Source: Shigella phage Sf23. Taken from it: a stretch of DNA of 64,000 nt. Within the stretch, counting starts at the first letter, position 1, and the number at the start of each line of letters is the position of its first letter. The stretch lies in sequence record MF158046; one strand, 5' to 3'. A model generated the notes under the pieces. The model made no database searches. It saw only the letters and a program-made list of their open reading frames with translations, and was not told the DNA's origin. The position numbers and the translations under genes were made by a program. This document shows positions 2,487 to 6,953 of this stretch, piece by piece.

Positions 2487-3511
2487 ATCTTAGCATATTT
2501 AGATAGCCGCATTTTAGCCATCAACCCCTGGGCAATATTATTTTTCATATATTCCATAATTTGTTCAGGGGTTGCACCTTCCTTTCTAATCATATCATTA
2601 ACATCTTTTGATTTCCAGGGAGATTTATCCCAAAACATAACCCTTTCTCCTGCATCAACTAATTTAGTCATTCGCTTAATAGTGTCAGGATGACGAGGTT
2701 CATTATCTAAGACCCACACACGCCTATCTTTAAATGGAACAACTTCTAGGTCTAATTGACCACCCGTAATAGCTATACCATTTTCAATAAAAAGCGAATC
2801 TATAGGTCCTTCTAGAACATATACATCACCATCTTTGACTCGTTCGACTCCATAGATTTTTGTTGCCTCAGGATAAGCTTTGATGGTGATATATTTTTGA
2901 GGAGCATCTTTCTTTAATGCACGTCCTTGAAAAGACTCAGCTTTTCCGTTAGCATTATAAATTGGAATAACAAGACGAGGCTCAGGTGTTTCCTTTTTAT
3001 ATGTTCCTGGAGCTATACTATTAACTAATTTAGGCCATTCAGTTGTAAACCAAAGATATTTCCATTTATCCTTTGGAATACAACGAGCTTTTACATATTT
3101 TATAATTGGATGGTCTTCCGCCAGTTTATCTAATCTAACACACGACGGAAGAGATTTAATTATTTTCTTCTCAGGTTGTTTAGGAAGTTCTTTAGGTTTT
3201 TCTACTGGACGACTTTTACCTTTTTCTTTTCTTATTTCAAAGATATACTCACGATATAAATCGGGTTCAAACTCCTTTAAATATATTCCGATTGGTGCAT
3301 GATAGTTACAGTTATAACAATGAATATTTCCTTCATTATTATCACCATAATACCATCCACGAGCTTTATTATGATCGGTTTTTGAATCTCCACAAACAGG
3401 GCATCTAAACCGCAATTTAAAAGTTGAACTATTGTTTACTTGTGTGAATTTAGGTAAATGAGCTAATGCACGATACGCAAACTCATTATCAATCCAAGGT
3501 ATTGATGACAT
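2483..3511 (-). CDS. 61: DNA primase gp61
   Basis: 342 aa as in T4 gp61; N-terminal zinc ribbon CPVCGDS...CYNCNYH; TOPRIM-like core; synteny with 41. Confidence 0.92.
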   Translation of the reverse strand: MSSIPWIDNEFAYRALAHLPKFTQVNNSSTFKLRFRCPVCGDSKTDHNKARGWYYGDNNEGNIHCYNCNYHAPIGIYLKEFEPDLYREYIFEIRKEKGKSRPVEKPKELPKQPEKKIIKSLPSCVRLDKLAEDHPIIKYVKARCIPKDKWKYLWFTTEWPKLVNSIAPGTYKKETPEPRLVIPIYNANGKAESFQGRALKKDAPQKYITIKAYPEATKIYGVERVKDGDVYVLEGPIDSLFIENGIAITGGQLDLEVVPFKDRRVWVLDNEPRHPDTIKRMTKLVDAGERVMFWDKSPWKSKDVNDMIRKEGATPEQIMEYMKNNIAQGLMAKMRLSKYAKI

Positions 3512-3513
3512 TT

Positions 3514-3678
3514 TTACTCTTCTTTTTCTTTAGATTCCTCTTTCTTCTTTTTAGGAATCTGTTCAGGACCTTTATTTACTACAGCGCCTGACGTTGTTCC
3601 AGTAGAGATATTTTCAGGATTACCACCTGAATCTCCAGCTACCATATCTTCTTTAATAAATTCTTTATATGTTTTCAT
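3514..3678 (-). CDS. small protein with internal-protein-like capsid targeting N-terminus (54 aa)
   Basis: Hand-translated ORF below the track cut-off: MKTYKEFIKEDMVAGDSGGNPENIST...KEESKEKEE; ATG 1 nt after the stop of ORF 3680..4036; N-terminus matches T4 IP capsid-targeting consensus MKTYQEFIAE. Confidence 0.45.
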   Translation of the reverse strand: MKTYKEFIKEDMVAGDSGGNPENISTGTTSGAVVNKGPEQIPKKKKEESKEKEE

Positions 3679-3724
3679 ATTAACCTCTATTCATAAAAGC
3701 ATTAAAAATTTGGTCATCAATAGA
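3676..3724 (-). repeat. 49-bp direct repeat copy A (gene 3' end + stop + next start)
   Basis: CATATTAACCTCTATTCATAAAAGCATTAAAAATTTGGTCATCAATAGA; 46/49 identical to copy B at 4034..4082. Confidence 0.9.
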
Positions 3725-4036
3725 TGGCACAGTAATATTTTCTGCATCATTTAGCAAATCATTAATTTCATCAGATAGCATAACACATGTGCCTTTATTT
3801 CCTGTAATTGTTACTGCACAATTACGAACGTTTTCTTTATCAAATTTTAGGTTAATATTTTCGTAGTGAAAATCCTTTAATGCCGAATATATCTTTAAAA
3901 TGAAATTGTCTTTTACTACAATAAACCCAACCTCACTATTAAAACGTGGTTCATGGAAACTGTAATAAACCTTTTCATCTATAAAATCGTATGAAATTTT
4001 TTCCATTTTTAAATATGAAAATTCAGAACTATACAT
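3680..4036 (-). CDS. hypothetical protein (118 aa), shares C-terminal tail with next gene
   Basis: ORF in the 61-41 accessory cluster; C-terminus SIDDQIFNAFMNRG encoded by a 49-bp repeat also found at the end of ORF 4038..4679. Confidence 0.55.
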   Translation of the reverse strand: MYSSEFSYLKMEKISYDFIDEKVYYSFHEPRFNSEVGFIVVKDNFILKIYSALKDFHYENINLKFDKENVRNCAVTITGNKGTCVMLSDEINDLLNDAENITVPSIDDQIFNAFMNRG

Positions 4037-4082
4037 ATTAACCTTTATTCATAAAAGCATTAAAAATTTGATCGTCAATAGA
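4034..4082 (-). repeat. 49-bp direct repeat copy B
   Basis: CATATTAACCTTTATTCATAAAAGCATTAAAAATTTGATCGTCAATAGA; encodes shared tail SIDDQIFNAFMN[KR]G. Confidence 0.9.
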
Positions 4083-4679
4083 AACATTTACTTTAGACTG
4101 TTTTTCTGATGGTAATTCATATCCACATATTACAATTTTGTGATCAATATCAAAATACACAGAAGCAATATGATTAATGATGTTTTCAGTAAAGTCTAAA
4201 TCAACATCAATATCTTTTTGACCACAGCCCAAAGGATAAATAATGCGAGTAATTCGATTATCTTTAACAAATATTCCACCGACATACTCTGTGCTGCGTT
4301 TAAAGTTTACACGTTTCCTAAATGAAAAATATTCAGGTTCTTTATGAGCCCGACTCATAGGACACAATGAGTAGCTAGAATAAGAGATGTCAAATCCTAC
4401 ACCTTCAATATGAGCCAACGCGTCATGATTAAACCAATTATAATCATATGCCAAATCCATTATATTGTAATATGTGAAAGGCACAGGATTAACATCATAT
4501 GTTGTACCTTTAAAATCTGCCCAGGCAACGATTTCGTTATCTTTAACAATTACAAAAATTACACCAATATGATATCCGTTATTATTTTCATTCGGCGTTA
4601 TATTATAACATTGTGCATCAGGAAATTTACCGTATTTAAACGGTGGATTTTTGTGCATATAATAAATCATATTATTCAC
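4038..4679 (-). CDS. hypothetical protein (213 aa), 61.2-position
   Basis: ORF in 61-41 cluster; C-terminus SIDDQIFNAFMNKG (repeat-encoded). Positional equivalent of T4 61.2; product identity not verified. Confidence 0.55.
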   Translation of the reverse strand: MNNMIYYMHKNPPFKYGKFPDAQCYNITPNENNNGYHIGVIFVIVKDNEIVAWADFKGTTYDVNPVPFTYYNIMDLAYDYNWFNHDALAHIEGVGFDISYSSYSLCPMSRAHKEPEYFSFRKRVNFKRSTEYVGGIFVKDNRITRIIYPLGCGQKDIDVDLDFTENIINHIASVYFDIDHKIVICGYELPSEKQSKVNVSIDDQIFNAFMNKG

Positions 4680-4965
4680 CTGTGATTTCGGTTACGATAT
4701 TTTTGTTATTAAAGTTTTTATCGCAATACAGAACATAATTATACTGCATTACACCACCAGACTTAAGTTGTTTTTGCACTTCAGCTTTCATTTTAGGACG
4801 ATCGCGCTCAACAATATTCATAATATCCGCTTCAATTTGAGTTTCAACTTCAGTCTGATCTGCAGTCATAGACCATTCACACAAGTCTTTATCATATCCT
4901 GCCATAGCAGGCTGAGCAGCACAAGAAGCCAAAGTAAAAATTGTAGCAAAAATAAATTTTTTCAT
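4672..4965 (-). CDS. sp: Spackle periplasmic protein (inhibitor of gp5 lysozyme, superinfection exclusion)
   Basis: 97 aa with signal peptide MKKFIFATIFTLASCAAQPAMA; size and position as T4 sp (61.3). Confidence 0.8.
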   Translation of the reverse strand: MKKFIFATIFTLASCAAQPAMAGYDKDLCEWSMTADQTEVETQIEADIMNIVERDRPKMKAEVQKQLKSGGVMQYNYVLYCDKNFNNKNIVTEITGE

Positions 4966-5025
4966 GATAATCTCCTCAGTAGTTTATGTTTATATAGTAT
5001 CTCAATTTCCAACAAAAGTAAACAG

Positions 5026-5325
5026 CTATTTTAAAACTTCTGCATAATCACATGTTACAAACTGTTTCTCTAGCTTAACGATCTTACGAAAGTATCTTTT
5101 GCATTGACGAATCTGCCGTTTCGTAGGACGTACAGCAAACTTAATAAATTCCACTCGACCAAATGGAGGGCTTTCTTCTGCCGGAATATCTAACACCAAT
5201 TCCCACGTATCCGCAATAAGTGCTTTGAATTGAGTATTTTTCCTGACGTTATACGGAGTAGGTTTAAATAAAACAATATGCATATTATCCTCGGCAATCC
5301 ACTTCGCACACTTTCTTGTCATCAA
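5026..5325 (-). CDS. hypothetical protein (61.4-like, 99 aa)
   Basis: ORF between sp and dmd; basic protein, no motif recognised. Confidence 0.5.
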   Translation of the reverse strand: MMTRKCAKWIAEDNMHIVLFKPTPYNVRKNTQFKALIADTWELVLDIPAEESPPFGRVEFIKFAVRPTKRQIRQCKRYFRKIVKLEKQFVTCDYAEVLK

Positions 5326-5467
5326 TGAAAGCTTTAACTAATGCTTTATTAACTTCAGCATATTGAGTAGTAGCCCATTGAACGTCATCTTTCATCATTG
5401 TGATTTCTTTAGTAAACATGCTTTCATTCTTAAACCACCCCATAAAAACTACCTTTACCAATTCCAT
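5285..5467 (-). CDS. dmd: Dmd, antitoxin against host RnlA/LsoA RNase toxins
   Basis: 60 aa, sequence matches recalled T4 Dmd (MELVKVVFMGWFKNESMFTKEI...); early promoter immediately upstream. Confidence 0.85.
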   Translation of the reverse strand: MELVKVVFMGWFKNESMFTKEITMMKDDVQWATTQYAEVNKALVKAFIDDKKVCEVDCRG

Positions 5468-5489
5468 AACAATCTCCTCATTTAACCAA

Positions 5490-5530
5490 CAAGACTACTA
5501 TACCATAGTCTTGTCAGTTTGTAAACTAAA
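5490..5530 (-). promoter_or_regulatory. early-type promoter upstream of dmd
   Basis: GTTTAC (rc 5521..5526) and -10-like TATAGT (rc ~5496..5504). Confidence 0.5.
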
Positions 5531-6953
5531 ATTTTAATTCATTTGCCAAAGCATCTAACTGAGCTCGAGTGGATTCATTTCTTTGATAGCGATTCTGTTC
5601 AGCCTGAATCTGTTGTGAACCTGCTACTTCACTCACTTCGGTTGGAGTAGAATCTTGTTCAATTTCTACCCATTTTTGATTTCCTTTTTGAACACCCATC
5701 AAAAACTTATTCCACTTATTCTTATCACCATATCGTGATTTGATTTGCTTAATAAGTTGTTGTTCAGCAGCTGCTAGCTCCTCGGTTTCAATGACCGCAA
5801 GCATAAAATCAGCTGTTGCTGGAAGACCAGCAGATTCTGCAATATCGCTCATGTTAACATCGGAAGAGTCCCAAGCTTGTTTACCGACCTGTGCTGCAGT
5901 CCAAAGAACAGTTTCGGTTTCAACAGCCAGAGCACGCAATTCCTCTGCGATAGCTTTAACAGTTGTGTAACTATTTTCTGAATAAACTCTAATGCGGCAA
6001 GATTTACAAATACCTAGATAGTCGACAATAATGATTGTTGGAACAAAATTCTTTTTGAGCTTTAATTCATTTAAAAGCGATCGAAATGTATTAGCGTCTG
6101 CCCCACCAGTAGGATACTGTTTAACGATTAAACGACCGAGAGTAGATTTCTCACGCCATTTTTCCATTTTTCCTTTATACTCAGCGTAAGAAATATGCCC
6201 ATCATCAATATCGTCAAGAGAAACATCGAGCATGTTAGCATCAATACGTTTAGCACAGACTTCTTCTGCCATTTCCATGGAGATATAAAGAACGTTATGA
6301 CCAAGCTGCAAATAATCTGCTGCTAATGAACAAAGTCCTAATGACTTACCAACGTTAACGCCAGCCATTAAAACGTTCAGTGTTCCTGTTTCAGCTCCGC
6401 CTTTAGTAATTTTGTTTAGAATTCTGAGTTTAAATGGAACTTTACGAGCTTTATTCATATAAGATAGCCAGCGTGCTTCGTAGTCATCCATCCAATCATG
6501 ACCAACGTAGCTATCAAATGAAATTGATAATGCTTGACGCATGATGTCAGGAATAGCACCAACATCCGGCATTTTCTTATTTCGTTTTTCCGGAGGAAGC
6601 TCAGCATTAGTTTGAATTTCGATTATTTTAGACGTAGCATTAAACATCGCCCTTTGCTGAACATATTTTTCTGTTTCTTTTACTAACCAACTGTGGTCTT
6701 CTGGAGAATCGGCTAGTTTTGAAATAAGTGTTTTTACACCAGAATATTCTGTTTCAGTAAATGAACTATTTTCTAATGCAACATTTAACGCATTAATAGA
6801 TGGAACGCTATGGTACTCATTAACGTGAGATTTAATTAATTTGAATGTATTTTTAGCTGGACCACTTTCAAAATATTCTGAATCCATATATGGCCAAACT
6901 TTTGAAAAATAAGCTTGATCAAATATGAGATGAGAAAGAATAATTTCTACCAC
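5526..6953 (-). CDS. 41: replicative DNA helicase gp41 (DnaB-like)
   Basis: 475 aa as in T4; Walker A GVNVGKS, DnaB-family motifs; synteny 61-41-40-uvsX. Confidence 0.95.
   Translation of the reverse strand: MVEIILSHLIFDQAYFSKVWPYMDSEYFESGPAKNTFKLIKSHVNEYHSVPSINALNVALENSSFTETEYSGVKTLISKLADSPEDHSWLVKETEKYVQQRAMFNATSKIIEIQTNAELPPEKRNKKMPDVGAIPDIMRQALSISFDSYVGHDWMDDYEARWLSYMNKARKVPFKLRILNKITKGGAETGTLNVLMAGVNVGKSLGLCSLAADYLQLGHNVLYISMEMAEEVCAKRIDANMLDVSLDDIDDGHISYAEYKGKMEKWREKSTLGRLIVKQYPTGGADANTFRSLLNELKLKKNFVPTIIIVDYLGICKSCRIRVYSENSYTTVKAIAEELRALAVETETVLWTAAQVGKQAWDSSDVNMSDIAESAGLPATADFMLAVIETEELAAAEQQLIKQIKSRYGDKNKWNKFLMGVQKGNQKWVEIEQDSTPTEVSEVAGSQQIQAEQNRYQRNESTRAQLDALANELKF

Follow-up and report, generated by a model that had tools for sequence, protein, structure and literature searches.

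In bacteriophage T4, the proteins gp43, gp55 and gp33 carry C-terminal clamp-binding peptides, which serve as tethered docking motifs. The T4-like phages also encode AdfA (anti-DarT factor A, T4 gene 61.2), which neutralises the toxin DarT1 by binding it, residue 164 (Arg or His) being decisive (PMC11257639). Among the short repeated elements of these genomes, PeSL is described as a mobile regulatory cassette composed of a strong sigma-70-like early promoter and a stem-loop terminator (PMC2839356). The present analysis concerns a 49-bp direct repeat in a 64,000-nucleotide stretch of Shigella phage Sf23 (sequence record MF158046), hereafter the window, where adfA and an adjacent gene of 118 amino acids (aa) end in almost the same sequence. 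With a probability of roughly 75%, each copy is the 3' end of one of two neighbouring genes that both belong to a fast-evolving AdfA (gp61.2) superfamily, in which the C-terminal tail peptide is under selection and which occupies the slot following the gene sp. As DNA the repeat is unremarkable, being what a conserved peptide and a shared translation-initiation junction leave behind.

The repeat search recovered the element at the positions first proposed, 3676-3724 and 4034-4082. Each copy is 49 nucleotides (nt) long, the two are 46/49 identical (94%) at a spacing of 358 nt, and the longest perfect run that they share is 25 nt. The runner-up direct repeat within 2500-6000 reaches 25 nt at 80% identity. 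Both tail genes lie on the minus strand. Read in the sense direction, each copy consists of 14 sense codons, rather than the 13 originally counted, followed by the stop TAA, one base and an ATG (42+3+1+3 = 49). Copy 1 (3676..3724, minus strand) covers the end of the 118-aa gene, namely its final 14 codons (SIDDQIFNAFMNRG) and TAA, and after a single base the start ATG of gene 61.1, its codons being TCT ATT GAT GAC CAA ATT TTT AAT GCT TTT ATG AAT AGA GGT. Copy 2 (4034..4082, minus strand) covers in the same way the final 14 codons of adfA (SIDDQIFNAFMNKG) and TAA, and after a single base the start ATG of the 118-aa gene, and reads identically except for GAC GAT at codons 3 and 4 and AAA at codon 13. 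The encoded 14-residue peptide is SIDDQIFNAFMN[RK]G in both cases, and the three mismatches comprise two synonymous Asp-codon swaps and one AGA/AAA exchange (Arg/Lys).

This peptide extends well beyond the window. Its consensus is S-I-D-D-Q-I-F-N-A-F-M-N-R-G, or in a wider form S-[IV]-D-D-Q-I-F-N-A-F-M-x-R-G. All related proteins found, as 66 cluster representatives, end in the tail, in 13 distinct versions, and Q5, I6, F7, F10 and M11 are invariant throughout. Three families of bodies carry it: AdfA in T4-like and RB69-like phages, proteins of 118/119 aa, and proteins of ~145 aa (phrog_8539) in JS98-like phages (Dhakavirus). It is thus present in at least three Tevenvirinae genera and on other protein families, as the original prediction had suggested looking for. 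A scan of viral contigs for codons specifying DQIFNAFMN returned 13 loci, all tail-ended and all from these three body families; a relaxed second viral pattern, applied in search of a fourth unrelated tail-bearing family, gave the same 13 loci again. In the metagenome scan, C-terminal tails occurred on these families only, the other QIFNAFMN matches being internal to large unrelated proteins (chance occurrences) or out of frame. Three homology searches likewise placed the C-terminal tail on AdfA, the 118-aa family and the 145-aa family only.

The ending is also retained where the bodies have diverged strongly. Distant members of the 145-aa family, with bodies ~35% identical, keep the form ..YS[IV]DDQIF[NK][AS]FM[NEK]RG. 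Furthermore, an exhaustive HMMER search against 1.84 billion representatives adds three proteins (P0060, P0061 and P0064) that share 43%, 32% and 19% body identity with the 118-aa protein of the window and that all end in DDQIFNAFM[NK]RG. The distant tail-bearing proteins measure 119-125 aa, the set from Dhakavirus and other T4-like phages spans 119-148 aa, and the charged segment preceding the tail varies in length. Within the searchable literature, a family-wide invariant tail combined with a fixed slot after sp has not been described.

These observations leave almost no likelihood to a chance resemblance or a very recent, functionless local duplication, the outcome that a tail unconserved in orthologs would have indicated. 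The high within-genome identity of the copies is the only feature that such an origin would account for. When the tail core is back-translated into a degenerate pattern and 3 mismatches or fewer are allowed, the 64-kb window is matched twice, both times at the repeat, whereas shuffled sequences lead one to expect 0.01 matches. The conservation of the tail over 66 cluster representatives from at least three genera, orthologs as well as other families, argues against it too, and so does the tandem gene order, which phages have in common even where their 118-aa proteins show no more than 76% identity.

A comparison of codons in 11 representative tails from three genera indicates what is being conserved. 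Synonymous variants occur at seven sense codons (TCT/TCA, ATT/ATC/ATA, GAT/GAC, CAA/CAG, GCT/GCC/GCA, AAT/AAC and AGA/CGA) and at the stop (TAA/TGA); the same tails contain only two replacements, Ile to Val and Arg to Lys, each of them conservative. On this sequence evidence the tail peptide is under strong purifying selection, which supports, at the level of selection, the proposal of a functional shared C-terminal tag. A natural control is the tandem pair of L058, where genes for 143 and 118 aa follow sp: the two tails agree at 12/14 residues and at 37/49 DNA positions, with seven synonymous differences, and the peptide is therefore maintained in tandem paralogs without a DNA repeat. The 46/49 identity in the window is mostly explained by peptide constraint, AT-biased codon usage and the shared junction of Shine-Dalgarno (SD) sequence, stop and ATG, with at most a modest excess. 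The repeat is therefore for the most part a side effect of selection on the peptide, of codon bias and of this junction.

One alternative is that the repeat is a homologous-recombination joint through which bodies are inserted, deleted or swapped, the tail being kept as the crossover site. The distribution of the 118-aa gene speaks for it. Three states of the locus exist: sp-adfA-61.1 in T4, sp-adfA-118-61.1 in the window and sp-118-61.1 in T2. They were counted by junction-specific searches of 50,697 phage records, the counts being approximate and including RefSeq/GenBank duplicates. Junction queries of 240 nt were confounded by pieces joined across the insertion, and the counts were resolved by a 101-nt query and subtraction. 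All three states proved to be common: ~156 records have the tandem state (adfA and the 118-aa gene), 141 have the 118-aa gene only (297 gene-bearing records minus 156 tandem), and ~113 have adfA only (269 minus 156 tandem). Relative to the window, T4 lacks exactly 358 bp, and its single repeat copy is base-identical to the 61.1-proximal copy of the window. The 118-aa gene plus one repeat copy is thus an exact presence/absence cassette of 358 bp, bounded by direct repeats. Its presence beside either N-terminal allele type of adfA implies that exchange has taken place repeatedly, and T4 recombination can use homologies of about 49-bp length. In addition, with the expectation computed from the codon usage of the window itself, the two copies show somewhat more synonymous identity than expected (P=0.034).

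Other evidence makes it unlikely that recombination is the reason for the repeat. The peptide is kept across genera while synonymous sites vary freely, and in L058 it persists at the DNA identity given above. The Lys/Arg difference between the copies is fixed in all clean tandem genomes, even where the bodies are ~76% identical, which indicates that the copies are not being homogenised. A perfect run of only 25 nt is short, and gain or loss of the cassette between co-infecting phages could proceed through the long, near-identical flanking genes. Module shuffling at the repeat, one of the two causes originally put forward, is therefore not sustained, the excess of identity being modest; occasional repeat-mediated loss of the 118-aa gene is plausible.

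Some further observations were made on these locus states. T2 is described as naturally devoid of an adfA homolog (PMC11257639); in its genome (L001, PV958097) a 118-aa tail gene stands directly after sp at 2451-2807, and a remnant ribosome-binding site (TTAGAGGTTAGT) lies upstream of it, where adfA would stand. In Yersinia phage phiD1 (L019, HE956711), positions 1052-2010 hold the 118-aa gene twice, the copies being separated by a C-terminal fragment of 33 aa, and the tails end in RD (AGA GAT). This arrangement may be a real product of unequal crossing-over or a misassembly; as Ns are present in the assembly at the site, it was discounted as evidence of unequal crossing-over. Apparent natural tail-less alleles in ECO4 and L038 were likewise set aside, being 1-nt homopolymer frameshifts and probably sequencing errors. 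The affected sites are the A-run of the 118-aa gene (L038, 96-460) and a TTTTT run in the adfA tail (phage ECO4, L053, 905-945).

The terminal part of the repeat has a second property, in that it forms a translation-initiation junction of ~13 nt, [AC]GAGGT-TAA/TGA-N-ATG, comprising SD sequence, stop and start. In copy 1 an SD-like GAGG (~3684-3687, minus strand) lies inside the Arg-Gly codons, and in copy 2 a weaker AAGG (~4042-4045, minus strand) lies inside the Lys-Gly codons. The junction is kept before four downstream genes, namely 61.1, the 118-aa gene, a 73-aa ORF (open reading frame) resembling 61.4 and an ORF of 63-67 aa. Codon 13 follows the gene downstream: it is AGA (Arg, giving GAGG) in 24/24 tails preceding 61.1 and AAA (Lys, giving AAGG) in 8/8 tails preceding the 118-aa gene, the N-containing phiD1 assembly being left out. 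The rule is true for both N-terminal allele types of adfA. As a separate observation, L057 shows at ~4365-4390 a 9-nt tandem duplication, AGAGGCTAA|AGAGGCTAATG, at the boundary between the tail gene and the next one, by which the stop is parted from a fresh SD copy.

It could accordingly be asked whether the repeat is conserved as nucleotides, as an RNA or translation element regulating the downstream gene through coupling, RNA structure or a promoter/terminator of the PeSL kind. The retention of the final 13 nt before any downstream gene would agree with this, and the AGA/AAA alternation is consistent with a tuning of SD strength. Nevertheless, the junction covers only ~13 of the 49 nt, and the other 12 codons vary synonymously while their amino acids are fixed. 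No common RNA structure is apparent, the folding z-scores of the copies being -1.5 and +1.9. Promoter-like sites are not more frequent than in shuffled sequence (16 vs 13.7 expected) and none falls in the repeat; terminator-like sites number zero. A PeSL or other promoter-terminator cassette and a conserved RNA structure were rejected on these grounds, namely the absence of such signals and of a shared stable fold, and control at the nucleotide level is an improbable explanation for the repeat as a whole.

The identity of the two genes bears directly on the proposed superfamily. The upstream product is full-length AdfA (T4 gp61.2), matching the Pfam AdfA profile PF23813 at 449 bits (cut-off 27, E=2.5e-135) over profile positions 1-211. 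The original prediction held that the ORFs 3680..4036 and 4038..4679 share a C-terminal tail. The tail is indeed shared. The most likely start of the upstream gene is ATG 4670 (210 aa, as in the homologs P0006-P0017) instead of GTG 4679; adfA accordingly occupies 4038..4670 (minus strand) and encodes two domains, a linker and the tail. The 118-aa gene (3680..4036, minus strand; RB32ORF033c family, phrog_4122) encodes a single domain plus the tail and is the gene borne by the 297 records mentioned above.

It is more difficult to decide whether the bodies are related. With its tail, the 118-aa protein is 34% identical to AdfA in BLASTP (E=3e-8) and reaches 32.2 bits against Pfam AdfA (cut-off 27, profile positions 113-211). 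The 145-aa protein matches the same model over its last 15 residues only (16 bits), so that the tail alone is worth ~16 bits in the profile. The BLAST value and the Pfam match were hence rejected as proof of body homology, the score arising mostly from the tail, and the comparisons were redone with the tail trimmed. Without its 14 tail residues the 118-aa protein has no Pfam AdfA match at all. In local alignment with the C-terminal half of AdfA, 17/5000 shuffles score as well as the trimmed 118-aa body (p=0.0034, z=4.1). Against the same half, hhalign gives P=0.0019 over 59 collinear columns for the trimmed 118-aa family and P=0.0017 over 71 collinear columns for the 145-aa family, in both cases at a probability below 20%. 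The landmarks YxSF, hGxIxVKDNxIxxI and LxFxxEN occur in the bodies in this order, body identities without tails are 15-40%, and the two halves of AdfA are weakly alike (p=0.012). The 118-aa protein has one domain and aligns to the C-terminal half of AdfA only, in contrast to the two-domain architecture of ~208-216 aa that characterises the AdfA family.

In Foldseek searches with the AdfA model, a viral protein of 118 residues ranks third (E=1.5e-3), both models being of low confidence. The AlphaFold 2 (AF2) models, of low to moderate confidence (predicted local distance difference test, pLDDT, 57 and 70), share one order of elements: four beta-strands lead into a helix, and an unstructured stretch then precedes a second helix at the terminus. 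Among the solved and predicted structures searched, AdfA has zero relatives outside its own family. The bodies are probably, though not securely, very diverged paralogs of one small beta-rich domain, and the 118-aa protein is probably a paralog of the C-terminal half of AdfA, i.e. a short member of the AdfA family. The description of the two bodies as unrelated thus agrees with the failure of the tail-less 118-aa body to match Pfam AdfA, while the weak collinear similarity speaks for divergence from a common origin.

Several results weigh against a superfamily unified by a selected tail. The window copies share 10/12 degenerate codons where 6.55/12 are expected, the excess to which the above P value refers, and some DNA-level process may also contribute to their identity. 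Body homology is weak (P ~0.002-0.003, with the low hhalign probability already given), the 145-aa family is not significant in single-sequence tests, and it may instead be that unrelated bodies captured the tail. As regards the tail itself, its pLDDT is <50 in the 118-aa model and ~60 in AdfA, and its hydrophobic moment is not significantly above that of shuffles (p=0.11). Plasmids of the pUT18 type place T18 on the C-terminus of the insert. AdfA with T18 on its C-terminus still bound DarT1 in a two-hybrid assay, for which primer 41, without a stop, and pUT18-adfA are listed (PMC11257639). Binding to DarT1 therefore does not depend on a free C-terminus, while whether the tail is needed is not addressed by the experiment.

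The last result also bears on the idea that the tail is a C-terminal tag of a known kind, either a gp45 sliding-clamp ligand, like the peptides of gp43 and gp55, or a protease degron dependent on a free C-terminus. A superficial likeness exists: the tail is short, hydrophobic-acidic and carried on a linker, and it begins with S-[IL]-D, like the S-L-D-F-L-F/Y of the gp43 and gp55 of the window, where gp43 ends in SLDFLFG. The tail nevertheless lacks SLDFL[FY], and its invariant QIFxxFM is a different motif; the retained DarT1 binding of the T18 fusion adds to the difficulty. The clamp-binding peptide was rejected as its motif is absent from the tail, and a known tag is a very improbable explanation.

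Taking these elements together, the preferred reading of two AdfA-superfamily genes with a selected tail can be put as follows. A member of the family is composed of one or two fast-diverging small beta-rich domains (two in adfA, one in the 118-aa gene), a linker of variable length and a strongly conserved C-terminal peptide. In the AF2 models the tail is a separate helix after an unstructured stretch, with low to moderate confidence; it may thus be a short helix on a flexible tether, with I6, F7, F10 and M11 on one face. Such a tail would perform a function common to the family, most likely docking on an invariant partner surface, for which DarT-type toxins or another conserved phage or host protein are candidates. 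The variable body would set target specificity, a role of the body that has been shown for AdfA residue 164 and DarT1 (PMC11257639). The last two codons ([AC]GA GGT), the stop and the next ATG double as the translation-initiation region of the downstream gene. Recent common ancestry or gene conversion could add a modest share to the near-identity of the copies, and the repeat may incidentally permit precise loss of the 118-aa gene, the T4 state being the expected product.

A more far-reaching proposal, which we regard as tentative, is that the slot downstream of sp is a diversity-generating anti-defence locus, in which one or two hypervariable target-recognition domains are each joined by a flexible linker to the invariant handle QIFxxFM. 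The handle would dock all members on one conserved partner, such as the catalytic cleft common to DarT-type ADP-ribosyltransferases or a phage or host factor that inactivates the target bound by the body. If so, further toxin or defence variants would be inhibited by the 118-aa and 145-aa proteins and their relatives, and T2 would possess the system even though it is described as being without adfA.

The wider locus is that of a Tequatrovirus (T4-like) genome, the closest DNA matches of the window being phages AugustSocin and CAM-21 (99%), followed by RB51, RB68 and AR1 (~97%). On the minus strand the gene order is gp41, dmd, 61.4, sp (Spackle), the 210/213-aa gene, the 118-aa gene, 61.1 and gp61 primase. 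The gene sp (4672..4965, minus strand) lies directly upstream of the tail-gene slot, and tail genes follow it directly in each context examined (the window, T4, T2, Sf21, wV7, JS98-like loci, L054, L057 and L058). The slot holds one tail gene, or two in tandem, and the tail gene mostly overlaps the sp stop codon. Gene 61.1 (3514..3678, minus strand; 54 aa) takes its start codon from the final 3 nt of repeat copy 1.

AdfA itself is variable. Its N-terminal ~60 residues exist in two very different allelic types, a T4 type beginning MLYQMHKCKDTY.. (208 aa) and an RB69 type beginning MIYYMHKNPPFKY.. (210 aa), while the C-terminal ~150 residues are ~95% identical between them (L002, L017 and L045 vs the window, L016 and L020). 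Both types are found with and without the 118-aa cassette, and adfA is therefore itself mosaic. The window AdfA has His at the site that alignment makes equivalent to RB69 R164H (..NIINHIAS..); in the 118-aa protein an Asn is aligned to this site, the alignment being uncertain. RB69-like AdfA sequences from metagenomes carry His or Arg at the specificity position (..NNIN[HR]IAS..; L007 and L051 vs L009, L037, L047 and P0018), so that both published alleles circulate naturally.

Other observations concern the neighbouring genes. The 54-aa gp61.1 is equivalent to the C-terminal module of a longer protein (154 aa) from the T4-like contig L057 (4613-5077), and to positions 109-154 of phrog_2086; the neighbouring gene thus gives a second example of differing bodies that carry a short, conserved module at the C-terminus. 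In JS98-like phages and their relatives, additional small ORFs stand between the tail gene and 61.1 (L010 at 3556-3943, L054 at 4365-4568 and L057 at 4387-4581). They are the 73-aa ORF, like 61.4/DUF7279, and the conserved 63-67-aa ORF (MTTA.C.GSKI..VF), the latter also present in RB69. The uncultured T4-like genome L054 (~173 kb) has an HNH endonuclease gene at 1871-2491, between gp41 and the dmd region. In the window, the ORF listed for 61.4 with a TTG start (5026-5325, minus strand; 99 aa) overlaps the 3' end of dmd (5285-5467, minus strand) by ~40 nt; 61.4 is annotated with 85 aa in T4, and the real start in the window is probably an internal ATG.

The relevance of the locus lies in its possible role in counter-defence. 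AdfA is among the few characterised phage counter-defences against DarTG. About 45% of the sequenced T4-like coliphages matching the region have an additional, shorter gene that ends in the same peptide. Related genera add further body types with this peptide, always in the same slot, and these are candidate anti-defence genes. The 118-aa gene of T2 also qualifies the statement that T2 has no adfA homolog.

Compared with the described systems, the nearest is AdfA (PF23813) itself. The 118-aa protein resembles it in the C-terminal peptide, in its neighbourhood and in weak collinear similarity to the C-terminal half, which bears the DarT1 specificity residue. It differs in having one domain, a tail-less body below the Pfam threshold and, on the uncertain alignment, Asn for the critical His/Arg; DarT1 neutralisation is published for AdfA, and an anti-defence activity of the 118-aa protein would be putative. 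The clamp peptides of gp43, gp55 and gp33 are comparable as short conserved C-terminal peptides on otherwise unrelated T4 proteins, and are distinguished by SLDFL[FY] as opposed to QIFNAFM and by the putative nature of the partner of the tail. With PeSL the locus has in common short repeats that flank variable, non-essential genes in plastic T4-like regions, with presence or absence bounded by the repeats; PeSL is a non-coding promoter plus terminator, whereas the repeat considered here is coding and ends in an SD-stop-ATG junction. Finally, the abutting stop-start junctions of T4 early gene clusters, associated with translational coupling, likewise place the SD sequence within the final codons of the preceding gene, with 1 nt between its stop and the ATG. 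In contrast to these, the junction of the repeat is tied to a conserved peptide and recurs before four different genes.

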